Origin: Candidatus Kaiserbacteria bacterium
Lineage (GTDB): Bacteria; Patescibacteriota; Minisyncoccia; Phycocordibacterales; UBA2100
DNA: 39,632 bases
Direction of reading: 5' to 3'
NCBI GenBank assembly: GCA_027066795.1
Contig: JAMONA010000023.1
Span: 1-39,632 of the forward strand
Of the stretch, positions 9,847-38,465 are shown piece by piece; the stretch's first letter is position 1, and each line of letters opens with the position of its first letter. The notes under the pieces were generated by a model that saw nothing but the letters and a program-made list of their open reading frames with translations, did no database searches and was not told where the DNA came from. Position numbers and translations under genes: made by a program.

Positions 9847-10621
9847 AAAATCGTTAGGGCAGAACTTCTTAAAAAGTCCTGCTGTGGTGCGCAAGATGGT
9901 AGAGGTCTCAGAAATAGTGAGTACTGACACTGTGCTAGAGATAGGACCAGGCAAGGGAGTACTTACGCAGGTACTGCTAGACACTGGAGCCAAAGTTATT
10001 GGTGTGGAGAAGGACACCGAGCTGATACCTATACTGCAAGACAAGTTTGCTAAGCAGCTAGATGATGGCCAACTCATATTACTCAACCAAGACATCGCGG
10101 ATTTTACAGAGCAACCTGTCGATGGTCTCACTCTATCTGAGTATAAAATCGTGGCAAACATCCCATACTATATTACCGGAGAAATAATAAGAATGTTCTT
10201 AGAGTCAGACCACCAACCAAAGAGTATGACATTGTTAGTGCAAAAGGAGGTAGCACAAAGGATAGTGGCTCATGATGGTAAGGAGAGTATCCTGAGCATG
10301 AGCGTTAAAGTATATGGTAAACCCAGATACGTACAGAAGGTACCTGCAATGCTATTTAGCCCAGCCCCAAAGGTCGACTCCGCAATACTACATATAGGTA
10401 ATGTGTCTAAAGAGTTTTTTATTGAATACGGTATATCTGAAGAACAATTTTTTAAAGCTGTGAAACACGGATTCTCCCAAAAAAGGAAAATGCTTACAAA
10501 TAACCTCAGTATCTCACCTGACGTACTACAAAAACTGTCTATAGATGCAAAAGCAAGGGCTGAGACACTCACTCTTGAGCAGTGGGGGGCTCTATCTAGG
10601 GTACTCACCGATATGGTATAA
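9833..10621 (+). CDS. rsmA: 16S rRNA (adenine1518/1519-N6)-dimethyltransferase
   Basis: KKSLGQNFL start, EIGPGKGVLT SAM motif, NIPYYIT. Confidence 0.92.
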   Translation: MMRAKKSLGQNFLKSPAVVRKMVEVSEIVSTDTVLEIGPGKGVLTQVLLDTGAKVIGVEKDTELIPILQDKFAKQLDDGQLILLNQDIADFTEQPVDGLTLSEYKIVANIPYYITGEIIRMFLESDHQPKSMTLLVQKEVAQRIVAHDGKESILSMSVKVYGKPRYVQKVPAMLFSPAPKVDSAILHIGNVSKEFFIEYGISEEQFFKAVKHGFSQKRKMLTNNLSISPDVLQKLSIDAKARAETLTLEQWGALSRVLTDMV

Positions 10622-10622
10622 T
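10614..10622 (+). promoter_or_regulatory. Consensus extended -10 (TGgTATAAT) embedded in the rsmA stop codon, 6 nt upstream of ATG 10629
   Basis: atgGTATAATactataATG. The same nonamer recurs at 21358-21366. Confidence 0.6.
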
Positions 10623-10628
10623 ACTATA

Positions 10629-10958
10629 ATGGCTCACTTAGCAAAACTTTTACTACTGGTAGCAATTTGTACTACTGTGTCAGCACCACGCGCTGAAGCC
10701 GTTGTAAATTTCGGTGGCTCTATCGGCACCATTATACCTTGTGTTAACACTGTTATATATACAGTACTTGGCCCACCTCGTGGAGGCAAGTACTTATGGA
10801 GTCCAAATGTAACCAAGACATACCCATTCGGCCCACCAAGCCACTCAGGACAATGGCTACTTGGTAACGCCGGCCCTGCTTATTTTTGCTTAGAGAGTGT
10901 ACTCCCGCTTATAGTTCACCCAGGACTACTAATGATAATGATGGGCTCAAGCCAATAA
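10629..10958 (+). CDS. Small secreted protein (109 aa), first gene of the T4SS-like cluster
   Basis: Signal peptide MAHLAKLLLLVAICTTVSAPRAEA. Mature part is G/P-rich with 2 Cys (FGGSIGTIIPC ... GPPRGG ... GQWLLG ... C). The ORF-track start at 10545 lies inside rsmA. Confidence 0.6.
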   Translation: MAHLAKLLLLVAICTTVSAPRAEAVVNFGGSIGTIIPCVNTVIYTVLGPPRGGKYLWSPNVTKTYPFGPPSHSGQWLLGNAGPAYFCLESVLPLIVHPGLLMIMMGSSQ

Positions 10959-10961
10959 CCT

Positions 10962-11813
10962 ATGAGCAGAGGAAGCCTAACATCACTCCTTATACTCTCG
11001 GTCTGTATTATAAGCGCACTGATGCTGGCTGGCCAATATTTGAGTAGTAATACAGAGACTCCTATAATAGAAAGTGCTTTTATAGCTAACAATAGCGCTC
11101 CACAGAGGTATAATGCATTTCAATCTTCAACCCTGACAAATAAAACACCACAGAACACTTTACCAAGCAATAAGCTGCCTGACTGGCAAGACTCTCCAAA
11201 TATAAAGCAAGCTCAATACGTGCCCAGAGTACTAACAGACGAAGCCACCTCTAACAATGACCAAAGAACAGATGTGGAGCATGCACCTTCGCCTCCAACA
11301 ACAAACCTCATTGATATCTGGAGTTGGCTGCCCAGTGCAAAGCCGTCAGTAAAGCAAGAAACTAAAAGCGACCCATTAAAGGACGAAATACATATATATG
11401 GCAACTCGTTTGGTACCTTAGTAAAAAAATTCACTAGCACAGCAGGCGACCAAGTACAAATAATGAGCGACTTCGTAGCAGGTAGGGGCAAACATGGCAA
11501 TACAGATGCTTTAGTAAGGCTTGGCAGCCAATATATAGAGCTTGCCGACTCACTATCTAAGCTTACACCGCCACCAGGATTTAGCTCTACATCCGAGGCA
11601 CTTATCAGGTTATATAAAGAAGTAGGTGAAGCTTCGCTTATGCTTGCTCAAGCCACTACTGACGATACCGCAACAGTATCTCTAATATACTCTTATAATG
11701 ATGTAGTTGGAGAATTCGCCCAAAAGTTTATTACTTTTTCAAGTACCTTTGGTGCATATGGCGTCACCTTCACCAAGGGAGAGGGTGGGGATATATTGAT
11801 GCCCTCTCTGTAA
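10962..11813 (+). CDS. Membrane-anchored extracytoplasmic protein (283 aa), unknown family
   Basis: N-terminal TM SLLILSVCIISALMLAG, then a low-complexity linker and a helical C-terminal domain. Confidence 0.6.
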   Translation: MSRGSLTSLLILSVCIISALMLAGQYLSSNTETPIIESAFIANNSAPQRYNAFQSSTLTNKTPQNTLPSNKLPDWQDSPNIKQAQYVPRVLTDEATSNNDQRTDVEHAPSPPTTNLIDIWSWLPSAKPSVKQETKSDPLKDEIHIYGNSFGTLVKKFTSTAGDQVQIMSDFVAGRGKHGNTDALVRLGSQYIELADSLSKLTPPPGFSSTSEALIRLYKEVGEASLMLAQATTDDTATVSLIYSYNDVVGEFAQKFITFSSTFGAYGVTFTKGEGGDILMPSL

Positions 11814-11819
11814 CAACAG

Positions 11820-11828
11820 TGTTATACT
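11820..11828 (+). promoter_or_regulatory. Extended -10 (TGtTATACT), 7 nt upstream of ATG 11836
   Basis: TGTTATACT-acttgtt-ATG. Confidence 0.5.
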
Positions 11829-11835
11829 ACTTGTT

Positions 11836-12657
11836 ATGAATCAAGGCTTTATATTAAGCAAAAGACTACTGGTTGGAAGTATTTTTGGCATCACAGTGAT
11901 TGGCGGTGCTCTATATATAAACACAAAAAACCATATCTCTAGCAATGCTACGCAACCATCAAGTCAGGTCGCTCAGAACAACAAAATAGACAAACCATAC
12001 TTAAGCACTATGGGGTGGGAGGACTCATTACTGTATGTACCAGCTTCAGATACTACTAAAGTTACTAACACTGACCTAAACGAGACAGAGATACTAACCC
12101 GTAATACGCTCGGTCCATACATAAAACAAAACCAAGACGGAACATACTCTAAAGAGGCGAACACAAGTATAGTAAAAAACGCGACAGCATACATGTTCAT
12201 ACTAGACTATGCTCCACTTACACCAAGTGACATTAAAACTAATACCAAGATTGATAAAAATACCGTACTCGAGTACCGACAAGATTTATACGCCGCGGTT
12301 AAGCCACTTTTTGAACTTGATGAGTACGAGCTTACAACCTATGCAAGAGCCATACAAAATAACTCTAAAGAGGATTTTGACTCGTTACTTACTATAGCAA
12401 GTAAATACAAACAAGCTGGTGATGGCGCCTTGGCCTTAGCTGCACCTAATGATGTATCTGCAGTACACTTAGCTATTATAAATAGTCTGTACAAATTCTC
12501 TGTTATACTTAATGAACTTGCCAAAGGTTATGATGACCCAGCAGCAAGCTTGGCAGGCACAGGCAACTTCACTAAGGCGGAAAATGAATTAGCAGATGCT
12601 TTTAATAAGTTAAAGCTATACTTTATACTTAAAGGAGTAGACAATATAACTATATGA
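11836..12657 (+). CDS. Membrane-anchored extracytoplasmic protein (273 aa), possible paralog of 10962-11813
   Basis: N-terminal TM LLVGSIFGITVIGGALYI. The C-terminal helical domain has similar spacing to the previous gene. Confidence 0.6.
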   Translation: MNQGFILSKRLLVGSIFGITVIGGALYINTKNHISSNATQPSSQVAQNNKIDKPYLSTMGWEDSLLYVPASDTTKVTNTDLNETEILTRNTLGPYIKQNQDGTYSKEANTSIVKNATAYMFILDYAPLTPSDIKTNTKIDKNTVLEYRQDLYAAVKPLFELDEYELTTYARAIQNNSKEDFDSLLTIASKYKQAGDGALALAAPNDVSAVHLAIINSLYKFSVILNELAKGYDDPAASLAGTGNFTKAENELADAFNKLKLYFILKGVDNITI

Positions 12658-14471
12658 TAAAGACACTTATAACAAACCAGATAGTATACATGGTTATATT
12701 AACTGTACTAGCATTTCCAGTATTTACAAATGCTCAGGCAACAGTAAATACTGATAGTATAAGACCTGGGGATATAGAGGCAAGAGAAGCAACCTTACCA
12801 CTAGTAGGCAATAGCTCATCAATACCAGGAGATTTCAGCAATGACGGCCTATACGGCTGTGAGGGGGGCAAGTATGGCTCTGTCGGCTTAGCACATGCAA
12901 GGGGGCCATTTGTACCAGTATCAGAAGAAGCTGTGGCACTTAACACAAACATACTCCTCTATAAAGAGTGCATACTTGATGGGGTAGTAGCCAGGATACG
13001 AGAGACGATGGTAGCCTTTATGGTCAAGAGCACCTTTAACTGGGTTAATCAGACGAATAATGGAGAATCCGCCTTTGTGGCTAACCAAGAGGAGTTCAGG
13101 CAATCTACAGCAGATAATGTTGTAAAAGATAGCCTGGAGGGTAGTAAGACAGCAAACATATGCGAGCCCTTCAGGCAAGACGTACGCACAACACTAGCAA
13201 GAGACTACGCTCGGTCCACACGTAAACCCGAAGACCAATACAAGTGCACCGTGCCAGATAAAGATAAGGATAATTACACAGCGTTCTTAAGAGGCGAAGG
13301 GGTGTTTAACTTAGATACATTCGCGCAAGCCTTGGAGCCACAGAACAACCCACTAACAGTATACGTAATGGCCCAAGAGCAACTGAAGCGCGATATAAAT
13401 AATAAACTTGAAGACGAATATGTAGAGTTAGGTTGGGGAGAGGGTTACAAGTCTCCAAAGGCATGTAAACAAATACCTGCAGGTAATGGTATTTATGAGG
13501 AAAGATGCGAAATAACCACACCTGGGGCTAATATAAAAAATATTATAGACTTCGTCTCTCTTACTGGCCATCGACAGACAGAGAGCGCTGACGAGATAGA
13601 CGAGTTAATGGGCTCTCTTATGAGTAATATACACACACAAATACTCACAAGTGTGGGAGGTCTAAAGGGTATCACTGACTCTATTGGAGGCGCAGCTTCA
13701 TTTGTAGACCAGATAGCGTCAGATGCGTCAGACAAAACAGAAGCAGAATATACACAAGCAGGCATTGGGCTACTCACAAGCGCCATAGCCACTGAGACAG
13801 CCTATGGCGCATCACGGTCGTCCTCTAAAGATAAATTAGAGGAAACAGCAGAGACACTTAAGGCAAGAGAAGGAGCTTGTTGGGACAGGCTCGTGGCACA
13901 AGCCAAGCTCGATCTTATAGAAGAGGCTGTGGCCTTGGCTTGCGCAGACATACGCCCAACTGACTTTGGGGCTAGTACCAATACTGAGTGTACTATTACC
14001 GGATCCGCCGTATCAAGCGATAATACTGAGCCTAACGCAGACAATAATGCTGACGAAAACGACACAACCAGTGACATAGTAATCACGGCAAACGCCGCAG
14101 GCAAGACAGTAACTGCAACTCTAGAGAGGCACAACAATAACTCATTCACCAAGATTGCTCAAAATATATTACCTCTACTACGTGTAGTTAGCCAATCTGT
14201 CACAGACTCAACTAATGCACTGTCCATACTAGCCGGTCTGCAACTCAACCTGTCAACGTCTAACACACCAGGTAATACAAGATTTGTACTTGGCCAAGTA
14301 GACCAACTGGTTAGGGCAGGTAAGTTGCATAAAGAGGCCGACATATACATAGCACAAGAGCAGCACTCTCAGATAACAACAACCATGGACTCTCTAATTG
14401 ACGAGACAACAAGACAGTGGGAGCAAGGTTGGTGCAACCCAGCAAACTGGAGAGACCAGATAAAGCAATAA
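12654..14471 (+). CDS. Large secreted protein (605 aa), unknown family
   Basis: Signal peptide ...MVILTVLAFPVFTNAQA. Scattered Cys. The start overlaps the upstream stop (ATGA), indicating translational coupling. Confidence 0.65.
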   Translation: MIKTLITNQIVYMVILTVLAFPVFTNAQATVNTDSIRPGDIEAREATLPLVGNSSSIPGDFSNDGLYGCEGGKYGSVGLAHARGPFVPVSEEAVALNTNILLYKECILDGVVARIRETMVAFMVKSTFNWVNQTNNGESAFVANQEEFRQSTADNVVKDSLEGSKTANICEPFRQDVRTTLARDYARSTRKPEDQYKCTVPDKDKDNYTAFLRGEGVFNLDTFAQALEPQNNPLTVYVMAQEQLKRDINNKLEDEYVELGWGEGYKSPKACKQIPAGNGIYEERCEITTPGANIKNIIDFVSLTGHRQTESADEIDELMGSLMSNIHTQILTSVGGLKGITDSIGGAASFVDQIASDASDKTEAEYTQAGIGLLTSAIATETAYGASRSSSKDKLEETAETLKAREGACWDRLVAQAKLDLIEEAVALACADIRPTDFGASTNTECTITGSAVSSDNTEPNADNNADENDTTSDIVITANAAGKTVTATLERHNNNSFTKIAQNILPLLRVVSQSVTDSTNALSILAGLQLNLSTSNTPGNTRFVLGQVDQLVRAGKLHKEADIYIAQEQHSQITTTMDSLIDETTRQWEQGWCNPANWRDQIKQ

Positions 14472-14478
14472 CCTCTAT

Positions 14479-17298
14479 ATGAAGTTATCCTTGCTTAAAA
14501 ATAGATTGAGAAGCTACTTAAGACAGTCTTATGGGTATGCCAAACTATGGGCCTCTATATCTTTTGCCTACCTGTTTGTGTTTAGTATAGACATCACATA
14601 TGCTGCCGTAACTGTCTGGACAAAGGGACTAGACATATTAACAGATACAGCCTTAAGTGCCGGTATGGTAGCACTTGCTATATCCATACCAGGCCTACTA
14701 CTCTGGGCCGGCGCAGAGTTATTTAATACAACACTTAGTTATACAGTACTTAACTTCAGTCAGCATATAAGCCCATTTCTAGCAACCTCTAACGGTGGCC
14801 CAGGCGCTATAAAGCTGCTGTGGACTAGTATACGAGATATAGCAAACATACTAATAATTGGCTCTTTTGTATACATAGCAATATCTAAGATATTAAGCCG
14901 CGCTAAAAACTTTAACCATACGATTGTAAACCTACTTGCAGTAGCAATACTTATTAACTTTAGCTTTTTCTTCGCCTTGGTTACTATAGACATATCTAAT
15001 TGGGCGTCTGTACAAATATACAACGCCGTCATACCTAGCGATACACCAGTTGGAACAGGTCTAGCTGAGGTAATTATACACAACATGGGCGGCGTAGAGT
15101 TTACAGGTGGTATGTGGCAAAATATACTAGACGGTTTAAAAAGCACCTTCTCGTCAGGAGGTAAGAGTCTTCTTACTACACTAATCTACATACTTCTAAG
15201 TATGATTATGACACTCTTAGCGGCAATTATGTTCTTTAGGATGTCATTTATGCTTATAGGCCGAGTTGTCGTGCTCTTTATGCTGCTGATAACCTCACCA
15301 TTAGCCTTCGCCGCCATGCTTATACCACCAATTAAGAATTATTGGATATACTGGCGTGACGGCCTTATATACAACTCTATCTTAGCTCCTACACTGCTAC
15401 TTTTGCTCTGGGCCGTCACTGTTATTATGATGACCTTGCATACATCATTATCTGCAGCTATAGGCACAGGCGGTTTAGTACAACAAAGCGGCCAGGTATC
15501 AAATCAGGCAGGACTAGTAGAGACAGCTGTACTCTTCTTCATAGGTATTGGTTTACTATGGGCAGCAATACGCATATCTACAAGCCTATCTACTAAAGTG
15601 GCAGGCTCTATGGGTGGACTAGGTCTTGCTATGAACAAGTTTGCCAATAACCAGCAAGGCAAGATTCTAGGAAAGGGCTTAGGGGGTGCTGGGCGCTATA
15701 TTGGACTTGCAACACTTGGTACTGGATTCGCATCAATGCAGAAAGGTCTCTCAGGCCGAGCTGAATCTTATGACAGTCAGGGTAAAAAAGGTCGTGCTTG
15801 GGCAGCTAGACTTGGTGCGAGCATGATGGCTAAGGGAGAGAAAGCTAATTTCGATATTCGCAACAGCAAGACAGCTCAAGGCCTTGCGTCCAAGGCTGGC
15901 TTAAGCATGGGGGCTGGGCAAACGGGTGGTATTACAGACTTACTTAATAAAAAAGATAAAGCAAAAGCAGCGCAACTTAAGGCCAGTGGTAAGGTTGTAA
16001 GGGACGAAATAGCCAAGGACTTAGCCGCAGCAGGTATCACAGAGTCTCGTAAAGATATGCTGAAGTCTGAGGAGAGAGCAGCCGCAAAAGCACAAGCCAA
16101 CCAAGAGCAGATAGACTCTCTTACAGACACAATGACACAAATGGGCTCTCATGAGAATGCCTTGGGTACAGGAGGAGACCCTGCCCAAGTCTTAGAGCAA
16201 ACACAAGCAAGAGTAGAGAAGCTCAAGAATGGTATAGAGGCAGCTAAGAATTCCAACAACAACGAGCTAGCACAACAAATGGACAGCGAGATGAAGCAGC
16301 AAGAAGCCAAGATAAAAACTGTTAGAAATCTAATAGAAGATAGGGGCGATGGAGAGGGGGCAACACTAGAAAGATTCCGAGACGAAGCAGCTTCCGATAT
16401 TGCATCCATATATAAAGACGGCACTCTAAGCTCTGAAGAAAAGTCTCAAAAAGTTAGTATCGCAAAAGATGCCCTGGTCACCAAGACCAAAAACTATAAA
16501 GATAGACTTTCTAAGTCTCGTACTGCAGCAGCAAGCATGAGCCGTAGAGCAAGCAATAGTGCTTCAACTACACATAATATGATGTTGAACCAACAAAAAG
16601 AGGTTTTGGACCAAAAGGCCGGAATAAAGAAAAACCTAATAGACGAAGAGCGAATCACATCAAAAACCAGAAAGAAGTTTGACGACGTTGCACAACGCCA
16701 CGATGGTATAAAACCAGAACAAGAGCTAAGCGAACAGATAGGACTTATTAATGAGATATCTGAATTAAACCAGAGTCTGGCAAGCCTAGAACATGCTCTA
16801 GAAAAGAGAGACCTAGACCTACAGCGTGCCACTACAGATAGGAATATACTTGCCATAGACACTCTACTGAAATCTATAGACACAATAGAAAGAAATATCT
16901 CCACAACAGCGGCTGCTAAAACCAAGGCAGAAGGTAAGCTAAAATCACAAAAAACTGTGCTAAAAAAAGAGCTTGATGCAAAACGCCGCGAGGTGGCAGC
17001 CAAGAAGGTTGAACTAAGCGAGGCGCAAGGCGCAAGGCGCAAAATCTTGGACAGAGAGTTGGTCAATCTAATTAAATCACTTACCAAACTTAATGAGCAA
17101 GAAGCAAAGTTTAGAGAAAAGACTGAGAAGAATAAGAAAAACCTTGGTAAAACGGATAAAGAACTAGAAGACGAAGAAGAATTAAAGGAGATTGCTAAAA
17201 CACTAGCCACTCTTAAGAAAAATAAAGATGCAAAAGAGAGAAAAGATAAGGAGGCAAAAAAGAAAGCCGAATCTTCTGAAGACGAATCAAAAACTTAA
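14479..17298 (+). CDS. VirB6/TrbL-like polytopic membrane protein with ~550-aa K/E/A-rich coiled-coil C-terminal tail
   Basis: About 8 hydrophobic helices in residues ~20-385, then a long low-complexity helical region (AKAAQLKASGK ... KKELDAKRREVAAKKVELSEAQ ... KERKDKEAKKKAESSEDESKT). Confidence 0.55.
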   Translation: MKLSLLKNRLRSYLRQSYGYAKLWASISFAYLFVFSIDITYAAVTVWTKGLDILTDTALSAGMVALAISIPGLLLWAGAELFNTTLSYTVLNFSQHISPFLATSNGGPGAIKLLWTSIRDIANILIIGSFVYIAISKILSRAKNFNHTIVNLLAVAILINFSFFFALVTIDISNWASVQIYNAVIPSDTPVGTGLAEVIIHNMGGVEFTGGMWQNILDGLKSTFSSGGKSLLTTLIYILLSMIMTLLAAIMFFRMSFMLIGRVVVLFMLLITSPLAFAAMLIPPIKNYWIYWRDGLIYNSILAPTLLLLLWAVTVIMMTLHTSLSAAIGTGGLVQQSGQVSNQAGLVETAVLFFIGIGLLWAAIRISTSLSTKVAGSMGGLGLAMNKFANNQQGKILGKGLGGAGRYIGLATLGTGFASMQKGLSGRAESYDSQGKKGRAWAARLGASMMAKGEKANFDIRNSKTAQGLASKAGLSMGAGQTGGITDLLNKKDKAKAAQLKASGKVVRDEIAKDLAAAGITESRKDMLKSEERAAAKAQANQEQIDSLTDTMTQMGSHENALGTGGDPAQVLEQTQARVEKLKNGIEAAKNSNNNELAQQMDSEMKQQEAKIKTVRNLIEDRGDGEGATLERFRDEAASDIASIYKDGTLSSEEKSQKVSIAKDALVTKTKNYKDRLSKSRTAAASMSRRASNSASTTHNMMLNQQKEVLDQKAGIKKNLIDEERITSKTRKKFDDVAQRHDGIKPEQELSEQIGLINEISELNQSLASLEHALEKRDLDLQRATTDRNILAIDTLLKSIDTIERNISTTAAAKTKAEGKLKSQKTVLKKELDAKRREVAAKKVELSEAQGARRKILDRELVNLIKSLTKLNEQEAKFREKTEKNKKNLGKTDKELEDEEELKEIAKTLATLKKNKDAKERKDKEAKKKAESSEDESKT
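17022..17042 (+). repeat. Tandem heptanucleotide GGCGCAA x3 inside the coiled-coil tail
   Basis: GGCGCAA at 17022-28, 17029-35 and 17036-42. 21 nt in total, encoding AQGARRK in frame. Confidence 0.9.
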
Positions 17299-17780
17299 TG
17301 AATATGAGTATAACCAATAAACAACAAATAGAAGACGCTTTCACAAACTTGCCGCAAGTACTACAAGACGCAGTCACAGACGCAGATGTACAAGCCAAGC
17401 TGCGCGCCTTGGCAGATGTACACAAACTGCATTTAGATAAGTGGACGATACTAGAAGATGAAATAATGAAGGGACTACTTGGTATAACAAACATAGATGA
17501 GCTAGCGCAGAATATACAAGAAAAGGTGGGTCTGTCGTCACAACAAGCTACAGAGATATCTAACTCTGTAGTAAAAATCGTACTCATACCAATACAAGAC
17601 AAACTGCACACAGAGGTAGGGGAGTCACAGAGCACCCTTGAGAGCATAGACTCTCAAGCAAAACCCAAGATAGATATCACTAAGTTCACTGGGGCACCCA
17701 CAGAGCCACAAGAATACCAGCCTGATACACCTAAAAAGTATGTTGCAAACAACGACCCATACCACGAGAGTGTGGAATAA
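17298..17780 (+). CDS. Soluble 160-aa protein, unknown family
   Basis: No TM segment. The start overlaps the upstream stop (TAATG). Confidence 0.55.
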   Translation: MNMSITNKQQIEDAFTNLPQVLQDAVTDADVQAKLRALADVHKLHLDKWTILEDEIMKGLLGITNIDELAQNIQEKVGLSSQQATEISNSVVKIVLIPIQDKLHTEVGESQSTLESIDSQAKPKIDITKFTGAPTEPQEYQPDTPKKYVANNDPYHESVE

Positions 17781-17822
17781 TAGTAGGGTAGTGGACAGTA
17801 CACGAAACAAGTGGTGGAGTGA

Positions 17823-17831
17823 TGTTATACT
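17823..17831 (+). promoter_or_regulatory. Extended -10 (TGtTATACT), 6 nt upstream of ATG 17838, in the only sizeable gap of the cluster
   Basis: TGTTATACT-gtaata-ATG. Confidence 0.55.
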
Positions 17832-17837
17832 GTAATA

Positions 17838-18296
17838 ATGCAATATCCAGTACCACAATTCCAAGATGTAGAAGACAAGATAATAGGCCCCCTCACTTTT
17901 AAGCAGTTCATATATATATTAGGCGGGCTAGGTCTCTCTTATGCAATACTGCAGGCAATACCGACAGGTCTAAATTACCTTTTGATAGCACCAGTAGCAG
18001 CATTGTCGTTAACGCTCTCTTTCTATAAAATTAACAATCAACCGTTTATAAACATAATAGAGTCTGCCTTTTACTACTCTGTACGCAATAAGTTATACTT
18101 ATGGAGTCACAAGAGGAAGCGTGTATACAAAGACGAGCCTGAACTAGGGGGGCGTGCTACGAGCCACGTGGAGGTACCTAATATGAGTGACAGTAAAATG
18201 AAGGAGTTAGCGTGGAGTCTAGACATCAACGAAAACGTAAAAAGAGCCGAGCACGCCAAGAGTATAACTGAGCAAAATGTGCTCAATAGTATATAA
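17838..18296 (+). CDS. PrgI-family / VirB3-like small membrane protein
   Basis: MQYPVPQFQDVEDKIIGPLTFKQFIYILGGLGLSYAIL... is the characteristic PrgI-family N-terminus, followed by a second TM. Sits directly upstream of the VirB4-like genes. Confidence 0.7.
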   Translation: MQYPVPQFQDVEDKIIGPLTFKQFIYILGGLGLSYAILQAIPTGLNYLLIAPVAALSLTLSFYKINNQPFINIIESAFYYSVRNKLYLWSHKRKRVYKDEPELGGRATSHVEVPNMSDSKMKELAWSLDINENVKRAEHAKSITEQNVLNSI

Positions 18297-18305
18297 ATAA
18301 AGATA

Positions 18306-18956
18306 ATGCCAGGAACAACTAAAAAAACAAAGCCATCTCAAAACTTCGTACCTGTTAAAGAGGTAAGGGACGGGGTAGTAACATTAAAAAATGGTGGACT
18401 CAGGGCAGTGCTTATGGCAAGCTCTTTAAACTTTGCCCTTAAAAGTGAAGATGAGCAAAATGCATTTATAATGCAATTTCAAAACTTCCTTAACTCTTTA
18501 GACTTCTCTGTACAAATATCTATACAATCTCGCAGGCTTGATATAAGACCATACATAGCAACGCTAGAGGAGAGACTCAAGGAAACAGTAGACGAACTAA
18601 TGCGTATACAAATAAGAGAGTACATAGAATTTATTAAGAGCTTTACAGAAGCTGCTAATATAATGACGAAACACTTCTTCGTAGTAGTACCATATACACC
18701 TGCTAAAATATCAGTAACTGATGGGCCACTATCCAAAATGCCGTGGAGTACAAAAAAACCACAAGTAAAAGAAGATTTTTCTTTTACAGAGAATGTGTCA
18801 CAATTAGAACAGAGAGTATCTATAGTGCAACAAGGTTTAGTCCGCTCTGGCGTACGTACGGTACAGTTAGGTACAGAGGAGGTGATAGAGCTCTTATACA
18901 AGATATTTAACCCTGGTGAGCTAGACCAACCAATGCAACAAGGTGAAAGTTTTTAA
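18306..18956 (+). CDS. Stand-alone VirB4 N-terminal-domain-like protein (216 aa)
   Basis: FVPVKEVRDGVVTLKNGGLRAVLMASSLNFALKSEDEQNAFIMQFQNFLNSLDFSVQISIQSRRLD parallels the N-terminus of the next gene (IAPSALQITSKSLSLGEKMARTFFVISYPRFLTTGWFSPIINLDKMFDIAIHIHPLD). Confidence 0.45.
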   Translation: MPGTTKKTKPSQNFVPVKEVRDGVVTLKNGGLRAVLMASSLNFALKSEDEQNAFIMQFQNFLNSLDFSVQISIQSRRLDIRPYIATLEERLKETVDELMRIQIREYIEFIKSFTEAANIMTKHFFVVVPYTPAKISVTDGPLSKMPWSTKKPQVKEDFSFTENVSQLEQRVSIVQQGLVRSGVRTVQLGTEEVIELLYKIFNPGELDQPMQQGESF

Positions 18957-18961
18957 TTATT

Positions 18962-20815
18962 ATGGGAATATTTGATTTATTAAAAAAGAATAAAGACAAG
19001 CAAGGAACCGATAGGGCAATGCCCGTACTGCCCGCAGAGATATACCAGCAAGGAGTACTTGAGCTACAAGATGTAATCGCCCCGTCTGCATTACAGATAA
19101 CCTCTAAGAGCCTCTCATTGGGGGAGAAGATGGCACGTACATTTTTTGTTATATCTTACCCTCGCTTTCTTACCACAGGGTGGTTTTCTCCGATAATTAA
19201 TCTAGACAAGATGTTTGATATAGCAATACACATACATCCATTAGACACCACAACGGTACTACGCAAATTTCAAAAGAGAGTAGCTGAGATAGAAAGCCAG
19301 ATCTCCATAAGAGAGGATAAAGGCCTAGTAAGAGACCCTAAACTAGACACAGCCTACGCTGACCTTGAGTACTTACGTGACAGACTCCAACAAGCACAGG
19401 AGAAGTTATTTGAGGCTGGTCTATACATAACAATATACGGTGATACAAGAGAGGAAATAGACAAGATAGAGACAGAGATTCGCTCAATACTTGAGGCTAG
19501 ACTTGTCTACCTTAAGCCAGCCCTATTCCAACAAGAGCAAGGTTTAAAAAGTGTATTACCTTTAGCAAATGACGAGTTAGGCGTAAGAAACAAACTAAAC
19601 TCTGACCCTCTCTCAAGTCTTTTCCCGTTTGTTTCATTTGACCTAACATCTGACCGTGGAATACTTTATGGTATAAACAGGCATAACTCTAGCTTAGTAT
19701 TGTTTGACCGCTTCAGTTTAGAGAACTATAACTCTGTAGTATTCGCTAAGTCTGGTGCTGGCAAGAGTTACATGATGAAGCTAGAGATTTTGAGAAGTCT
19801 AATGTTTGACGCAGATGTAATAATAATAGACCCTGAAAGAGAGTACGAATATCTAGCAGAAACAACTGGTGGACGATACTTTAACATCACTCTCTCTAGT
19901 GAGCACCACATAAACCCATTTGACCTACCAATACCAAGAGAGGACGAGAACCCTGCAGATGTACTACGCAGCAACATAATCACATTAGTAGGCCTATTCC
20001 GTATCATGCTTGGCGGCTTATCACCAGAGGAGGACTCAATAATAGACAAGGCCATCACTGAGACATATGCATTAAAAGATATTAGCCCTGATAGTAACTT
20101 CGCAAACATAGAACCTCCTATACTCTCAGACTTCCACTTGGTGCTATCAGGTATGGAGGGATCAGAGAGCCTCGTACAGCGCCTTACTAAGTACACAGAG
20201 GGTACTTGGAGCGGCTTCTTAAACCAAGCTACCAATGTATCTATGAACAAGAAGCTCGTGGTCTTCTCTGTGCGCGACATGGAGGATGAGTTGAAGCCTG
20301 TGGCCATGTATATAATCACTCACCACATATGGAACATTGTACGTAAAGAGCTTAAAAAGCGCCTACTGGTAATAGACGAGGCATGGTGGATGATGAAGAG
20401 TGACGACACTGCATCATTCTTGTTTGGCATAGCTAAGAGAGGCCGTAAGTACTTCTTAGGGTTGGCAACTATTACACAAGATGTGGCCGACTTCCTAAGC
20501 TCTAAATATGGCAAGGCCATGCTTACTAACTCCTCTATACAGATACTCCTACGGCAGTCACCAACCTCTATAGACTTAATACAAGATACCTTTAAGCTCT
20601 CTGATGAGGAAAAATACCTACTACTAGAGAGTGCTGTGGGGGAGGGTATCTTCTTCGCAGGACTTAAGCATGTGGCCATAAAGGTTATAGCAAGTTATAC
20701 AGAGGATCAGATAATCACAAGTGACCCATCACAGATACTCGCAATTAAAAAAGCAAAGAAGGAACTCTCTGAAGAGAGCATGTCGGAGAGCAGTTTAGAC
20801 TCTATAGAGCTATAA
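18962..20815 (+). CDS. virB4: VirB4/TraC/PrgJ-family type IV secretion ATPase
   Basis: Walker A AKSGAGKSY (GAGKS codons at 19754-19768), Walker B RLLVIDEAWWMM, GLATITQDVADF, typical length and N-domain. Confidence 0.85.
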   Translation: MGIFDLLKKNKDKQGTDRAMPVLPAEIYQQGVLELQDVIAPSALQITSKSLSLGEKMARTFFVISYPRFLTTGWFSPIINLDKMFDIAIHIHPLDTTTVLRKFQKRVAEIESQISIREDKGLVRDPKLDTAYADLEYLRDRLQQAQEKLFEAGLYITIYGDTREEIDKIETEIRSILEARLVYLKPALFQQEQGLKSVLPLANDELGVRNKLNSDPLSSLFPFVSFDLTSDRGILYGINRHNSSLVLFDRFSLENYNSVVFAKSGAGKSYMMKLEILRSLMFDADVIIIDPEREYEYLAETTGGRYFNITLSSEHHINPFDLPIPREDENPADVLRSNIITLVGLFRIMLGGLSPEEDSIIDKAITETYALKDISPDSNFANIEPPILSDFHLVLSGMEGSESLVQRLTKYTEGTWSGFLNQATNVSMNKKLVVFSVRDMEDELKPVAMYIITHHIWNIVRKELKKRLLVIDEAWWMMKSDDTASFLFGIAKRGRKYFLGLATITQDVADFLSSKYGKAMLTNSSIQILLRQSPTSIDLIQDTFKLSDEEKYLLLESAVGEGIFFAGLKHVAIKVIASYTEDQIITSDPSQILAIKKAKKELSEESMSESSLDSIEL

Positions 20816-20816
20816 T

Positions 20817-21365
20817 ATGTCTGACCAAACCCAGTACAAGATTAACGACACCACCAAGTGGGTGATGATATCTCTTGCTCTTATGTTTGATGGTATACAG
20901 TACATAACACCTGGATATACAGACACACTTATTACGGCAATAGCGGCACTGGTTTTCGGTATGATACTAATAGAACATGGAGCACTAACAGTTAAGGGTA
21001 GTAGCGCTCTACGTTATGGGCGTATGCTTGCAGTTGCTGGTGAACTTATCATAAGTCACATACCGGCAATAACACTAACTATCATAATTCAAATACTTAT
21101 ATCTAGGGCGGCAGACAGGGTTGTGCCAGACTCTGTACAAGGTTTATTACGTACAGCTAAACTCAAAGGCAAGCTGCAAGATGTATCTAAAGGGAAAAGA
21201 TTTATAAAAATGCGGTCTAAAAAGATGGCAAGAGTAGCCTACGGCAAGGGTAAACGAGGGGCCAATACTAGGGCTCGTAAGATGGGTATAAAGCCTAGTG
21301 CTGAGACAACTCGTAGGCAACAACGCTTACAAAACACTAAATCTACTCCTAAAACAGTGGTATAA
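20817..21365 (+). CDS. Three-TM membrane protein with highly basic cytoplasmic tail
   Basis: TM segments WVMISLALMFDGIQYI, LITAIAALVFGMILI and ITLTIIIQILIS. The last ~70 aa are K/R-rich (KGKRFIKMRSKKMARVAYGKGKRGANTRARKMG...). Confidence 0.55.
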   Translation: MSDQTQYKINDTTKWVMISLALMFDGIQYITPGYTDTLITAIAALVFGMILIEHGALTVKGSSALRYGRMLAVAGELIISHIPAITLTIIIQILISRAADRVVPDSVQGLLRTAKLKGKLQDVSKGKRFIKMRSKKMARVAYGKGKRGANTRARKMGIKPSAETTRRQQRLQNTKSTPKTVV

Positions 21366-21366
21366 T
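21358..21366 (+). promoter_or_regulatory. Consensus extended -10 (TGgTATAAT) embedded in the upstream stop codon, 6 nt before ATG 21373
   Basis: TGGTATAAT-cagccc-ATG. Identical nonamer and geometry to 10614-10622. Confidence 0.55.
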
Positions 21367-21372
21367 CAGCCC

Positions 21373-22371
21373 ATGCGGTATATATTTATAAGTATTGTTG
21401 TTATATTACTCAACACAAGCTCAGTTGTTGAGGCTGCAAGTTTTAACTCTGTGTCTATCTCAACAGTGCCAGAGTACCCAAAACCAGGAGAAGCCACCTC
21501 TATAAGCCTACAAAGTTACTCCTACGAGCTGCAAGGGCTGCCAATCTCTTGGTATTTAAATGGTGTATTTTTCAAGGAGGGTATAGGCCTAACTAAGATA
21601 TCCCTTAGCGCCCCTGGGCTTGGCAGTGCTACGTCTGTGAAGGCACAAATAGGCAACATAACAAATACAACACTTGAAATAAGGCCAACCACTGTAGATA
21701 TACTATGGGAGGCTGACACATCAACACCTAAGTACTTCCTTGGTAGGGCATTGCCTGTAGACTCCTCAAATATACATGCTGTTGCCATACCTCACCTAGG
21801 TAACCAAGACGCTACAAACCTTATATACAAGTGGTACATAAATGGACGATTCCTCAAGAACCTATCTGGTGCAAACAGAAATACTATAGTAACGTCATCA
21901 CCTAAACTATACGACGACTACTTCTTGTCTTTAGATATACTAGATAACTCAGGCCGCACCCTCGGTAGTAACGGGGTGAAGATACACTCTACAGAGCCAG
22001 AGGTTATATTATATAACATATCACCTCTGTTAGGTGTCATCACTTACAACGCACTAGGTGCAGCCACCATACAAGAGTCATCTATAGAGCGCACTGTGTT
22101 AGCTGTCCCATACTACTTCAACACTCCAAGTATAGGCAACCTGTCATACAAGTGGGATATCTTTAATGCGGAATACATACAAGATATTGGAGTAGATAGT
22201 ATCACAATAACTGATGCACAAGTTGGTGCCGGTGTATCTGTAGAGATAACAAACCCTGAGGCACTCTTACAATCATCACACACAGCATATCGCTTTAAAA
22301 ACTATGAGTCATTACACAACGATACTTATGGTAATGGAGATTATCAATCTCCATTTGGTTCTTCAGAATAG
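21373..22371 (+). CDS. Secreted protein with three internal ~100-aa repeats (Ig-like?)
   Basis: Signal peptide MRYIFISIVVILLNTSSVVEA. Repeat landmarks ISWYLNGVFF, YKWYINGRFL and YKWDIFNAEY. The ORF-track start at 21298 overlaps the previous gene. Confidence 0.6.
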   Translation: MRYIFISIVVILLNTSSVVEAASFNSVSISTVPEYPKPGEATSISLQSYSYELQGLPISWYLNGVFFKEGIGLTKISLSAPGLGSATSVKAQIGNITNTTLEIRPTTVDILWEADTSTPKYFLGRALPVDSSNIHAVAIPHLGNQDATNLIYKWYINGRFLKNLSGANRNTIVTSSPKLYDDYFLSLDILDNSGRTLGSNGVKIHSTEPEVILYNISPLLGVITYNALGAATIQESSIERTVLAVPYYFNTPSIGNLSYKWDIFNAEYIQDIGVDSITITDAQVGAGVSVEITNPEALLQSSHTAYRFKNYESLHNDTYGNGDYQSPFGSSE

Positions 22372-22386
22372 GATAATTTATATAAT

Positions 22387-23652
22387 ATGGAAAAACGAAA
22401 AATATACATAATAACAACCATAGTAATCCTAACTATGTTGACTGCTCTTGCTTTATGGTATGCCTACATCATAAGGCAAGAGGTGTCTATTGGTCAATCC
22501 TCTGAGTTAGACTTATACAATACAACTCAAGAGCTCAGCGGTAGGGTCTCAGGCTCAACAGGTGGCCAAACTAGCGAGTCAAGTACAACAGTATTTGGTA
22601 CACCATATGGCGACACAGTAGTAAGTAATACATCAACCAATGAAACAGTAACGAATCAAGATGGAGTCCTTGAGACTAACATATTAGCAACAGAAGCTTA
22701 TATACCAGAGTCTTGGTCATTATTACAACTACACCAAAGCGCAACAGCCGGACACTTAACAGAAGATGACTCTGTACTGTTTATAGACACTAAAACAGGC
22801 ACATTACTTGAAAACACCCTAGATGGAGAGACGACAAACATGACCACAGATACCATACCGAACCTAATAAAATCATATTTTATTGATACTAATTTTATAC
22901 TACTTGTTAAAAGTGTTGGAGCGCCTATAATTATAAACACATCAAACGATAGGGTACAGACTCTGTACGACACTGTGCTACAAGTATCACAAACAGATAA
23001 CGCTATATACTACACAACACCCAATGCGACACGTGGTATAACTTTAAAAAAGATATCTCACGAAAGTGTAAAGGCGTATGATGTAAAACCAGAGACTGTT
23101 TGGACCTCTAACCTCTCGGGTTGGCTGCTACAGGCAACTTCTGCATCCGTGGTATTAACTCAAAAGGCTTCATACAACATACCAGGCTATTCATATCTAC
23201 TGCCTGGTGGTAGTAATAAGGCAACACTTACAACACTAGTACAGGATGCCCCTAGTTTAATAACAAACATATCTCAGGATGCTAAAAGTCTCTTATACTC
23301 AACCGTTGATAACGATGGTATACACCTATATTTAAAAAACTTGGTAGACAACACTGTAATAACACTATCTACAAAGACACTAGCAAGTAAGTGTGCTTGG
23401 GGTGGTGACTCTAGTACATTTTATTGTGCTGTACCCGACTCATTACCTTCTAGCACTTTACCAGACTCATGGTACAAGGGGCAAGTAGGTTTCTATGATA
23501 GTTTATGGCGCATTAACGCCCAGAGTGGAGACGCACTAGAGTTGGCAGGTGCTACCAACCTTGATATAATAGACATACAAGTTAAAGACTCTGTCATAAC
23601 ATTTAAAGACAAGACAGACCAATCGTTATGGGCAATAGTTAAGGACTTATAG
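22387..23652 (+). CDS. Membrane-anchored extracytoplasmic protein (421 aa), beta-rich, unknown family
   Basis: N-terminal TM IYIITTIVILTMLTALALWYAYI, an S/T-rich linker, and a long beta-strand-like C-terminal region. Confidence 0.55.
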   Translation: MEKRKIYIITTIVILTMLTALALWYAYIIRQEVSIGQSSELDLYNTTQELSGRVSGSTGGQTSESSTTVFGTPYGDTVVSNTSTNETVTNQDGVLETNILATEAYIPESWSLLQLHQSATAGHLTEDDSVLFIDTKTGTLLENTLDGETTNMTTDTIPNLIKSYFIDTNFILLVKSVGAPIIINTSNDRVQTLYDTVLQVSQTDNAIYYTTPNATRGITLKKISHESVKAYDVKPETVWTSNLSGWLLQATSASVVLTQKASYNIPGYSYLLPGGSNKATLTTLVQDAPSLITNISQDAKSLLYSTVDNDGIHLYLKNLVDNTVITLSTKTLASKCAWGGDSSTFYCAVPDSLPSSTLPDSWYKGQVGFYDSLWRINAQSGDALELAGATNLDIIDIQVKDSVITFKDKTDQSLWAIVKDL

Positions 23653-23664
23653 TATATAGCTATT

Positions 23665-24546
23665 ATGTTAGACATCACAAACTTTATTGCAGCGGCAGGA
23701 GAATCTGTAAAGGTCGGGTTTCAGCCACTTACTAAAATACCGTTTTTGAGTAACTGGACTCCAGGCTCAGACTTTACAGGCTCTACCACAGGTGTTTTAA
23801 ACACAGTCTTTAGCTTATCTATAAAAATAGGTGCCATGCTCGCCATATTCATGTTTGTGTTGGGTGGCCTACAGATGATAACCGCACGAGATAACGCAAG
23901 TAATGTAGGCAAGGGTAAGACTAGAATGACAAACGCCGTATTTGGCCTATTAATGCTATTGTCAACATTTGTGGTGCTAAATACCATAAATCCTCAATTA
24001 ACTGAACTAGGGTTCTTAGGAGGTGGTACTATACAGCTTGATGCACCGCCAGCTCCTAAAAAGGCTGTATCTGGCACACCAGATGATCTATCAAATAACC
24101 CATATATATCTACTGGCGGGTTTTTAGCTGTAGTCTTACAAGACGGAGCAATGTCTATAAGAAAGTTTAATAACCGAACCTCTTGTCAGCAGTCTGTTAA
24201 AGGTGGTGCTAGGTGTGTACCAATAACAGACATCTCTTTAAAAAAGGCTCGGGATAAATTATCTCTATTTAGGATAAGTGGCCAAAACAGAACATTTGGC
24301 TGCTACTCTAATGACGGTGGAACAAGTTGTTTATCTATATATAGTAGCGTTAGTCAATGTAAGACCTTGAATACTAATAGTTCACCTATTAAATGCACCA
24401 TTAAAAAGATGAGGGCTGATACACCGACAAAAGATGGTCCATGGGTGTTTGCACGTGCCAGTGATCAAAAATTTGCTGATAAAGAACTGTGCAATTTGAA
24501 AGCAAGCTTATATCCACCAGGATCAACAACTTGTATAAAAATCTAA
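23665..24546 (+). CDS. T4SS-pilin-like (TrbC/VirB2-type) two-helix module fused to a ~170-aa 8-Cys C-terminal domain
   Basis: The hairpin LNTVFSLSIKIGAMLAIFMFVLGGLQMITARDNASNVGKGKTRMTNAVFGLLMLLSTFVVLNTINP matches the pilin pattern (TM, G-G, charged loop, TM). The C-terminal domain has 8 Cys. Confidence 0.55.
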   Translation: MLDITNFIAAAGESVKVGFQPLTKIPFLSNWTPGSDFTGSTTGVLNTVFSLSIKIGAMLAIFMFVLGGLQMITARDNASNVGKGKTRMTNAVFGLLMLLSTFVVLNTINPQLTELGFLGGGTIQLDAPPAPKKAVSGTPDDLSNNPYISTGGFLAVVLQDGAMSIRKFNNRTSCQQSVKGGARCVPITDISLKKARDKLSLFRISGQNRTFGCYSNDGGTSCLSIYSSVSQCKTLNTNSSPIKCTIKKMRADTPTKDGPWVFARASDQKFADKELCNLKASLYPPGSTTCIKI

Positions 24547-26242: not shown

Positions 26243-26348
26243 TTATCAACATATACCCACAGGTTATCCACAGAGTTTTCTACTTTTATCTCATATTTAT
26301 GGTTTGTTGCATCCATTTTATTTTAGTATAATGCAAATCTGTGGATAA
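26243..26348. promoter_or_regulatory. DnaA-box cluster upstream of dnaA (oriC, left part / dnaA autoregulation)
   Basis: TTATCCACA at 26264-26272 (perfect). TGTGGATAA at 26340-26348 (perfect, inverted). TTATCAACA at 26243-26251 (1 mismatch). Confidence 0.8.
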
Positions 26349-27760: not shown

Positions 27761-28008
27761 TAAGTTGTGAATAACATGTACAAATACATAAGTTAATATT
27801 GTTGATAAACACTTAATAAGTCACCATTAAATACTAGATATACATAGATAGAATAGTAATCAACAAATTATTAAAATTATATACACACATTATGCACATA
27901 AACAAAACATTAAATATGTAGTAAACTAAAGGTAATTAAACCACTTTCCACATATCAACACCCCTAATAGAGTATAGTACTTAAATTAATAAAAATAACT
28001 AACACCTT
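27761..28008. other. dnaA-dnaN intergenic oriC segment (degenerate DnaA boxes plus AT-rich unwinding candidate)
   Basis: TGTGAATAA 27766-74, TGTTGATAA 27800-08 and TTATGCACA 27890-98 have one mismatch each. The stretch 27821-27940 is very AT-rich. Confidence 0.65.
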
Positions 28009-38442: not shown

Positions 38443-38449
38443 TATTATA

Positions 38450-38459
38450 ATGATAACAT
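38450..38459. promoter_or_regulatory. Quasi-palindromic 10-mer ATGATAACAT serving as overlapping divergent extended -10 elements for pilB and tsaE
   Basis: Plus strand: TGaTAACAT (38451-59), 6 nt, ATG 38466. Minus strand: TGtTATCAT (38458-50), 7 nt, ATG 38442. Confidence 0.5.
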
Positions 38460-38465
38460 GCAACC

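Follow-up and report, generated by a model that had tools for sequence, protein, structure and literature searches.

What does a bacterium do with a chromosomal gene cluster that encodes the motor of a conjugation machine and no enzymes to process DNA for transfer? The question is raised by thirteen genes on a contig of Candidatus Kaiserbacteria bacterium (GenBank assembly GCA_027066795.1, contig JAMONA010000023.1), of which the whole 39,632-nucleotide stretch analyzed here is referred to as the window. A first-pass annotation, made from the DNA alone, had taken the cluster for a domesticated, non-conjugative apparatus resembling a type IV secretion system (T4SS). The identity of the VirB4 ATPase, the lack of DNA-processing genes and the conservation of the locus all favor this view, which also agrees with published work (PMC10633639; PMC12102498; PMC12857230). 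We consider it likely that the cluster encodes a domesticated, non-conjugative T4SS for host interaction, derived from the conjugation machinery of monoderm bacteria belonging to mating-pair formation class FATA (MPF-FATA). The system itself is already known from papers of 2020-2025: the locus is a chromosomal, relaxase-less Patescibacteria T4SS in the Paceibacteria arrangement.

Much of the uncultivated diversity of bacteria belongs to the Patescibacteria, which apparently live off other microbes, and the T4SS is among the few machines whose essentiality to an epibiotic lifestyle has been demonstrated. This demonstration comes from transposon sequencing (Tn-seq) of Southlakia epibionticum, where, in the passages of Wang et al. 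(2023, Cell; PMC10633639) that concern the system, T4SS genes SEML1_0006-0019 are reported as essential for epibiotic growth; the Southlakia cluster adjoins dnaA and dnaN, contains essential pilins, and has no recognizable coupling and relaxase proteins. A survey of 3,035 Patescibacteria genomes (Quinonero-Coronel et al., 2025; PMC12102498), likewise cited here and below for its T4SS passages, places TrsD, PrgI, VirB6 and PF18895/VirB2 homologs near virB4, and gives dnaA, dnaN, rnpA, ksgA (rsmA) and rpmH as the neighborhood of the Paceibacteria T4SS. In the parts of a 2025 review that bear on it (PMC12857230), the T4SS is considered as a pilus that might conduct signals or serve uptake.

The motor and its inner-membrane partners

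The ATPase of the apparatus is encoded by the ninth gene of the cluster, g09 (genes are numbered in order; coordinates are given in Table 1). Its product scores 368.7 bits against the NCBIfam conju_CD1110 VirB4-like equivalog, above the 325-bit cut-off, aligning with profile positions 184-733 of 752, and has Pfam matches to P-loop_TraG, AAA_10 and TraC_F_IV. Those sequences of solved structures that g09 matches all belong to VirB4 proteins, namely 4AG5 (5.7e-42) and TrwK (1e-6). The Walker A motif, GAGKS, lies at 19754-19768, and the Walker B motif, LLVIDEAW, at residue 468 (nucleotide 20363). An FtsK/HerA-type identity is excluded, as the CD1110 equivalog cut-off is passed and the structure matches are to VirB4 only. 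The protein is 73-96% identical to VirB4 of metagenome-assembled genomes (MAGs) labeled Paceibacteria, Kaiserbacteria, Parcubacteria or Paceibacterota, and its closest counterparts outside the candidate phyla radiation are VirB4-like CD1110-family ATPases of Firmicutes and Actinobacteria, at 31-37% identity. These identity levels, rather than a tree, place g09 within the Patescibacteria VirB4 clade, which the survey describes as monophyletic and nested in MPF-FATA (PMC12102498).

The preceding gene, g08, matches the NCBIfam models VirB4_plasma (1.5e-12, profile positions 99-233) and TrsD (7e-6) as well as positions 2-134 of conju_CD1110, and its precomputed Pfam assignment is TraC-like PF26593. 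Since g08 thus matches the N-terminal part of the very VirB4 model that identifies g09, VirB4 is split into two genes here, as in the TrsD/TrsE pair of pGO1. We compared the window with 80 related loci (L001-L080) from species-level genomes, picked by VirB4 similarity, of which 43 have full 10-kb flanks; g08 adjoins virB4 in all 43. The g07 product, in turn, matches Pfam PrgI at 1.1e-7 (32.7 bits, above the gathering cut-off of 27).

The candidate channel subunit is g05. Residues 57-364 of this protein contain at least seven transmembrane (TM) segments, its C-terminal half, some 500 residues long, is rich in K, E and A, and in size and architecture it resembles the roughly 1000-residue VirB6-like proteins SEML1_0011 and SEML1_0013. 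A Pfam scan of g05 itself gave no match, and its match to the NCBIfam MMCAP2_0566 family of mycoplasma conjugal transfer membrane proteins, at 1.1e-4, is below threshold. Among 45 positional homologs, seven match Pfam TrbL (best 7.2e-5) and one matches TrbL_4. A word-indexed search with the N-terminal 420 residues returned three homologs only, none of them Pfam-annotated, and the g05 profile found designed or chance matches alone among PDB sequences. It is plausible but not proven that g05 is an extended VirB6/TrbL-like channel subunit.

These results can be set against the first-pass annotation, which had counted four recognizable parts. For the VirB4-family ATPase, the Walker A motif is exactly where it had put it, the Walker B motif reads as it had quoted, and the equivalog cut-off is passed; the PrgI/VirB3-like and T4SS-pilin-like proteins both score above their Pfam cut-offs. 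Its proposal of a VirB6/TrbL-like protein is weakly supported: topology and size are consistent with it and seven relatives match TrbL, but g05 itself has no Pfam match. It had also remarked that g08 resembles the VirB4 N-domain, which the TrsD match and the alignment to VirB4 model positions 2-134 bear out; a TrsD-like VirB4 N-domain being a known family, the count of recognizable parts becomes five.

Locus, flanks and the absence of DNA-processing genes

All thirteen open reading frames (ORFs) of the cluster are intact and lie on the plus strand (10629-24546), between rsmA and jag-yidC-rnpA-rpmH-oriC-dnaA-dnaN. Recomputation of the successive intergenic gaps (3, 22, -4, 7, -1, 57, 9, 5, 1, 7, 15 and 12 nt) upholds the first-pass description of thirteen co-directional ORFs no more than 57 nt apart, and the junctions that it had singled out (an ATGA overlap at 12654-57, a TAATG overlap at 17296-17300 and a 1-nt gap at 20815/20817) are exact. 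The cluster start needs correction: at position 10614 a TGGTATAAT box begins and not a coding sequence, and the ATG of g01 lies at 10629.

Only core genes occupy the approximately 10 kb upstream and 15 kb downstream. The upstream genes encode L7/L12, EF-Tu, S10, an M23/LysM peptidase, MurA, UvrD, a GNAT protein and RsmA; downstream come Jag, YidC, RnpA, RpmH, DnaA boxes, DnaA, DnaN, PBP1A and RuvC, then a desaturase and, further on, YebC, RuvB, a PilB-like ATPase and TsaE. Pfam confirms rsmA, jag/R3H, yidC, dnaA and dnaN, and precomputed gene calls add rnpA and rpmH, in accord with the core-gene flanks that had been proposed from the sequence. Between rpmH and dnaA (26243-26348) there are two perfect DnaA boxes (TTATCCACA) and one with a single mismatch, and the dnaA-dnaN interval (27766-27898) holds three more with one mismatch each, which fits an oriC some 1.7 kb away from where the T4SS cluster ends.

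The same arrangement recurs in relatives. Most of the 43 full-flank loci show the order rsmA-(g01)-g02-g03-g04-g05-g06-PrgI-TrsD-like-VirB4-small TM-g11-pilin/g12-jag-yidC-rnpA-dnaA-dnaN, and roughly 36-40 of them have the same core-gene flanks. By BLAST, g07, g08, g09, g11 and g12 are present in 43/43, g05 in 41, g04 in 36, g06 in 28, g03 in 19 and g02 in 9; in the full set of 80, 44 loci have a g10-like ORF, at a median distance of 31 nt past virB4, and 66 have pilin-domain ORFs. The genes that had been left without a family at first pass do, then, co-occur with virB4. Median identity to the window is 76% for VirB4 (a figure biased upward by the choice of loci), 62% for the TrsD-like protein and 45% for PrgI, compared with 52% for DnaA and UvrD, 48% for RsmA, 47% for YidC and 37% for DnaN among the core genes and 25-29% for the extracytoplasmic g04, g05, g11 and g12. 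This gradient indicates very strong constraint on the motor and fast divergence of the exposed parts. Many of the related MAG records (L001 and L004-L007, among others) are titled 'uncultured Candidatus Saccharibacteria bacterium'; their VirB4 (74-83% identity) and gene order match Kaiserbacteria/Paceibacteria-type loci, and the titles are apparently generic or mistaken.

Conservation gradient and fixed site together exclude a degenerate integrative and conjugative element (ICE) or a recently acquired island. An ordinary ICE, which the first-pass annotation had named among the findings that would overturn its view, is refuted by the core genes on both sides and by their recurrence in relatives. 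The hallmarks of such an element are also lacking. Scanning of window ORFs of at least 60 residues against family profiles gave no match to relaxase, type IV coupling protein (T4CP), VirB11 or integrase families across the 39.6 kb, there is no tRNA gene in the window, and the flanking direct repeats are of chance level only (17-22 nt); the profile scans and the repeat search thus substantiate the earlier statement that relaxase, VirD4/TraG coupling ATPase, VirB11, integrase and flanking repeats are all missing. The lack of DNA-processing genes, and a match to known families for no more than about five of the thirteen proteins, might be expected of a decaying remnant of an integrated conjugative element that no longer has a function. 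We regard the chance of this as negligible: the ORFs are intact and tightly packed, their content and order are kept in most of the 43 species-level genomes, VirB4 retains a median identity of 76%, the GC content of the cluster (0.37-0.46) is similar to that of the upstream core genes, att repeats, tRNA and integrase are absent, and the orthologous Southlakia locus is essential according to the relevant passages of PMC10633639.

The missing genes could instead be unlinked, or too divergent to recognize, in which case the cluster would be a functional conjugation system that moves chromosomal DNA or an unlinked element. Our inspection covered 39.6 kb of the genome, and according to the survey passages 2,918 Patescibacteria genomes have VirD4-like T4CP homologs, for the most part at a distance from virB4 (PMC12102498). 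The same source, however, finds relaxases in only 103 of its 3,035 genomes, with 15 relaxase genes near virB4, notes that the T4CP homolog is non-essential in Southlakia whereas the T4SS is essential, and describes a VirB4 phylogeny that tracks taxonomic classes. The locus is, moreover, fixed at one chromosomal site, and its motor is conserved above DnaA, which is unusual for a gene of a mobile element. A working conjugation system is on these grounds very unlikely.

Accessory proteins, the pilin module and a proposed host-directed function

With a domesticated, non-conjugative T4SS as the preferred reading, attention turns to the proteins that surround the motor (Table 1), which besides the five recognizable parts include seven conserved proteins of the envelope or of soluble type. 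The unassigned ones are predicted to be extracytoplasmic because of their signal or TM segments, even cysteine counts, adhesion-type modules in relatives, and Ig-like and TolB-like matches.

Table 1. Genes of the T4SS cluster and extended -10-like boxes that precede four of their start codons (positions in the window).
Feature	Position	Strand	Description
g01	10629..10958	+	109 residues; N-terminal signal-like and C-terminal hydrophobic segment
g02	10962..11813	+	bitopic, TM residues 6-24; C-terminal helical domain of ~140 residues
g03	11836..12657	+	bitopic, TM residues 11-29; g02 paralog by sequence
g04	12654..14471	+	predicted secreted, 605 residues, 10 cysteines
g05	14479..17298	+	939 residues, polytopic, VirB6/TrbL-like
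g06	17298..17780	+	160 residues, acidic, soluble
g07	17838..18296	+	PrgI family (VirB3-like) membrane protein
g08	18306..18956	+	TrsD-like, separately encoded VirB4 N-terminal domain
g09	18962..20815	+	VirB4 ATPase, middle and C-terminal motor domains
g10	20817..21365	+	small polytopic membrane protein, basic tail
g11	21373..22371	+	secreted or anchored; three predicted Ig-like repeats
g12	22387..23652	+	N-terminally anchored, extracytoplasmic; probable TolB-like beta-propeller
g13	23665..24546	+	VirB2-like T4SS pilin module and C-terminal extension
extended -10-like box TGGTATAAT	10614..10622	+	6 nt before g01 ATG; candidate leaderless promoter
extended -10-like box TGTTATACT	11820..11828	+	7 nt before g03 ATG
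extended -10-like box TGTTATACT	17823..17831	+	6 nt before g07 (PrgI) ATG
extended -10-like box TGGTATAAT	21358..21366	+	6 nt before g11 ATG

For g04, a signal-peptide protein, AlphaFold2 run on a 92-sequence alignment predicts an elongated all-alpha bundle with very long helices and two small beta inserts (mean predicted local distance difference test score, pLDDT, 83.5; predicted template modeling score, pTM, 0.70). Foldseek found no significant match to the model in the PDB (best E 0.18) or BFVD (best E 0.048); flagellin, NheA/AhlB and colicin Ia were rejected as homologs, being elongated helical proteins that match at E>=0.18. The family is a broad one, with 2480 representative clusters recovered by phmmer at E<=1e-3. 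Some relatives carry F5/8 type C (discoidin), Ig-like or fn3 modules, which fits a surface-exposed binding component; g04 is a candidate extracellular stalk, tip or adhesin component. Its resemblance to VirB5 is confined to general shape and to a position just upstream of the VirB6-like gene: no VirB5/TrbJ-type Pfam match occurs among 41 family members (E<=0.01), and no PDB fold gives a significant match.

The two proteins encoded upstream of g04 share a C-terminal helical domain of about 140 residues (hhalign probability 98.4%, E 8.6e-15), and g02 and g03 are paralogs by this comparison. A Pfam scan of g02 gave no match, and the g02/g03 profile retrieves only designed coiled-coil or helical proteins among PDB sequences, with no NTF2/VirB8 signal in that search; a positional analog of g02, of about 290-320 residues with one TM segment, is found in most full-flank loci. 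The first gene of the cluster is a doubtful member of it, since few loci carry g01 and mostly on the opposite strand. Homologs occur in only 14 loci (46-66% identity), in 13 of which the gene stands between rsmA and g02 on the strand opposite virB4 (as at L001:1951-2277); it is co-directional with the cluster in the window and in L008. Pfam and NCBIfam scans gave no match for g01, and inverted repeats that might explain the flip were sought on either side of it and found to be short and of chance level only. We conclude that g01 is probably a neighbor and not an operon member.

On the cytoplasmic side, g06 has no TM segment, a conserved C-terminal DPY(R/H)E motif, and no family or PDB sequence match beyond designed or chance ones. 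In one relative, a g06-like N-terminal part and a PrgI domain are encoded by a single 426-residue ORF (L037:950-2230). The fusion is one instance and may be an artefact of assembly or a frameshift, but it hints at joint action of g06 and PrgI/VirB3 at the cytoplasmic face, and g06 is a likely cytoplasmic partner of PrgI/VirB4. A paralogy of g06 and g07 suggested by hhalign was discarded, its signal having come from this one fused ORF. The g10 family, for which no Pfam or PDB sequence match was found, is undescribed. Its features include an Asp conserved in the first TM segment and the motif E-x-I-P...P-x-x-T, and the g10 of the window is retrieved, at E 5.4e-12, by a profile from which its own sequence had been left out.

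Two further proteins appear to belong to familiar folds. The g11 profile matches the Ig-like domains of phage T4 Hoc among PDB sequences (E 1.4e-4), and its repeats show W-x-x-N-G motifs in the alignment; the protein is predicted to consist of three Ig-like repeats and to be secreted or anchored. For g12 the corresponding match is to TolB (7MX5) and is weak, at E 1.5e-3. The protein has a conserved C-terminal pair of cysteines, one relative has a PG_binding_1 domain, and single-sequence AlphaFold2 gave no usable fold (pLDDT 35); the profile match makes a membrane-anchored TolB-like propeller the probable assignment.

The last gene, g13, matches Pfam T4SS_pilin PF18895 at 4.5e-8 (33.5 bits, cut-off 26.6), and in its family 41 of 46 members do so and nine match TrbC/VirB2 (PF04956). 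The pilin module, with two TM helices, spans residues 38-106; the roughly 185 residues after it form a Cys-rich extension that contains seven of the eight cysteines. Only the pilin module, some 29% of the protein, aligns to relatives; the extension does not. A pilin-domain profile retrieves 70 ORFs, of median length 300 residues, from 67 sources (66 of the 80 related loci and the window), with exactly one such gene in 64 of the 67. Within the 46-member family, enzyme domains are found in a number of ORFs: NlpC/P60 in three, YkuD in two, and VanY, CHAP, Amidase_5 and subtilase S8 in one each (the counts are per domain family, so that the same member may count more than once). Single ORFs at the pilin position combine T4SS_pilin with NlpC/P60 (L047:13751-15331 and L062:4294-6075) or with subtilase S8 (L043:13293-15035), and another, L073:12871-14619, has NlpC/P60 at E<=1e-3 without a pilin match at that threshold.

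Because the extensions of several relatives match cell-wall enzymes or a protease, and that of the window is Cys-rich, g13 might be a modular carrier, in which a VirB2-like module is handled by the VirB4/VirB6 machine and a hypervariable extension is displayed or delivered at the host interface, making of the T4SS, with g04, a device to breach or grip the host cell wall. We put this forward tentatively, as a possibility more doubtful than not. A keyword search of PMC12102498 brought up no mention of pilin-enzyme fusions, and the passages of the T4SS literature examined were silent both on these fusions and on the g04 fold. The first-pass annotation had called the extracytoplasmic partners candidate novel components; the apparatus itself was already known.

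Expression of the cluster may not follow a single long transcript. The window has 13 copies of the pattern TGNTATAMT, compared with 6.8 expected, and four of these boxes end 6-7 nt before start codons of the cluster (Table 1). In relatives, a TANNNT box lies 5-8 nt before an in-frame start in 46 of 72 PrgI homologs, against about 13-45% at other cluster genes, and such a box precedes an in-frame start in 36 of 71 g11 homologs. No Shine-Dalgarno-like motif was found before any of the 38 window genes checked. Extended -10 boxes that abut ATG codons, together with the absence of Shine-Dalgarno motifs, suggest leaderless sub-operons (g03-g06, g07-g10 and g11-g13) and Shine-Dalgarno-independent initiation in this genome. 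The start of g11 is most likely the ATG at 21373, just after the TGGTATAAT box, and not the upstream GTG at 21298.

Taken as a host-directed machine, the apparatus could work as follows. Transcription from several internal extended -10 promoters would yield leaderless mRNAs beginning at g01, g03, g07 and g11. VirB4 hexamers would dock on PrgI and g05, energizing the extraction of the pilin-module protein from the membrane and driving a short pilus or conduit to assemble across the cell wall. The extracellular part of this structure would be formed or decorated by the helical-bundle protein g04, the Ig-like g11, the propeller g12 and g02/g03. With it the bacteria, dependent on a host because of their reduced genomes, would make contact with the host cell and pass proteins or other molecules across the interface instead of conjugating DNA.

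The direction of transport might also be reversed, with the machine importing host DNA or nucleotides that these bacteria cannot synthesize, like Helicobacter pylori ComB or archaeal Ced. Such a role would sit well with a window devoid of relaxase and T4CP; a short stretch of g09 matches the model of the DNA-import ATPase CedB at 1.5e-10, far below cut-off, and published passages place the ABY1-class locus beside comF, recG and radA (PMC12102498) and raise uptake from the host as a possibility (PMC12857230). The review passages also report, however, that deletion of comEC in Southlakia abolishes competence and not viability, whereas the T4SS is essential, and that natural competence in Saccharibacteria is ascribed to type IV pili (PMC12857230). 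A dispensable comEC beside an essential T4SS indicates that the essential role of the latter is not ComEC-dependent DNA uptake. As no competence genes adjoin the cluster in the window either, we judge an import machine of this kind to be unlikely, although less so than a conjugation system.

Several points weigh against a domesticated T4SS for host interaction as we have drawn it. Host contact, effector delivery or uptake can be proposed as its function in this lineage by analogy, the experiments having all been made in other lineages. In the cluster we identified neither a VirB8-like nor a VirB1-like component, the window's own g05 falls below threshold as a VirB6, and a coupling protein could be present elsewhere in the genome. 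A pilin module with a 185-residue extension may not polymerize like VirB2. The roles given to g02, g03, g04, g06 and g10-g12, finally, come from localization signals, weak profile matches and one structure prediction.

Some neighboring genes deserve mention in their own right. A fatty acid desaturase family protein (32481-33443, plus strand, Pfam 4.6e-32) may act on host-derived lipids; to our knowledge, bacteria of this lineage are generally described as being without de novo fatty acid synthesis. Apart from VirB4, the window encodes one secretion ATPase, a PilB/GspE-type T2SSE protein with an MshEN domain (36751-38556, minus strand, Pfam 7e-109), which is probably part of a type IV pilus apparatus, a machine also implicated in Patescibacteria host attachment. 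Five kilobases upstream of the cluster lies a gene for a LysM and Peptidase_M23 protein (4858-5868, minus strand). M23/LysM domains figure among the VirB1-like candidates of Patescibacteria in the survey passages (PMC12102498), and the protein may equally be a general cell-wall enzyme.

Comparison with known systems

The window offers a clean and complete example of the Paceibacteria arrangement and no new kind of system. It provides several handles on T4SS function, namely about twelve conserved genes, a confidently predicted g04 fold that lacks a match, pilin-enzyme fusions in relatives and a motor conserved above DnaA. What interest remains attaches to the uncharacterized accessory proteins, above all to the g04 fold and to the fusions of pilin and enzyme.

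Among the counterparts are Bordetella Ptl, Brucella VirB, Helicobacter ComB and archaeal Ced, which are likewise powered by VirB4, lack an adjacent coupling protein or relaxase, and serve host interaction or import. Ptl, Brucella VirB and ComB, however, are diderm systems with VirB7-10 cores, Ced is archaeal, and there is no specific sequence kinship beyond VirB4. Mycoplasma ICEs are mobile and have DNA-processing functions of their own. The window resembles the T4SS of these elements in that the Mbov_0397 VirB4 model is matched by g08 (1.5e-12) and g09 (6.8e-78), and the MMCAP2_0566 family weakly by g05, all of them below cut-off.

Kinship is also seen with the MPF-FATA systems of monoderms (pCF10 Prg/Pcf, pGO1 Trs and Clostridioides CTn2), with which the cluster shares a CD1110-type VirB4, a PrgI-type VirB3, a TrsD-like split N-domain as in pGO1, and the lack of an outer-membrane core (VirB7/9/10). 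Unlike them, it has no relaxase, T4CP, oriT-processing genes or PrgB-type surface adhesin, possesses a VirB2-like pilin, which is lacking in Gram-positive systems, and is chromosomally fixed and not borne on a plasmid or ICE.

The closest match is the Patescibacteria-clade T4SS (in Southlakia, SEML1_0004-0019), which has the same chromosomal place beside dnaA/dnaN, the same core order of VirB6-like protein, PrgI, TrsD-like protein and VirB4, a PF18895 pilin, no relaxase or T4CP in the cluster, and VirB6-like proteins of about 1000 residues with hydrophilic C-terminal halves. Within this clade, Saccharibacteria have an array of six small pilins of their own, together with lysozyme-like, PEGA and NTF2 (VirB8-like) proteins, whereas the Paceibacteria arrangement has a single long pilin-module protein, no recognizable hydrolase/lysozyme or NTF2 protein in the cluster, and a conserved set of its own, made up of g02/g03, g04, g06, g10, g11 and g12.

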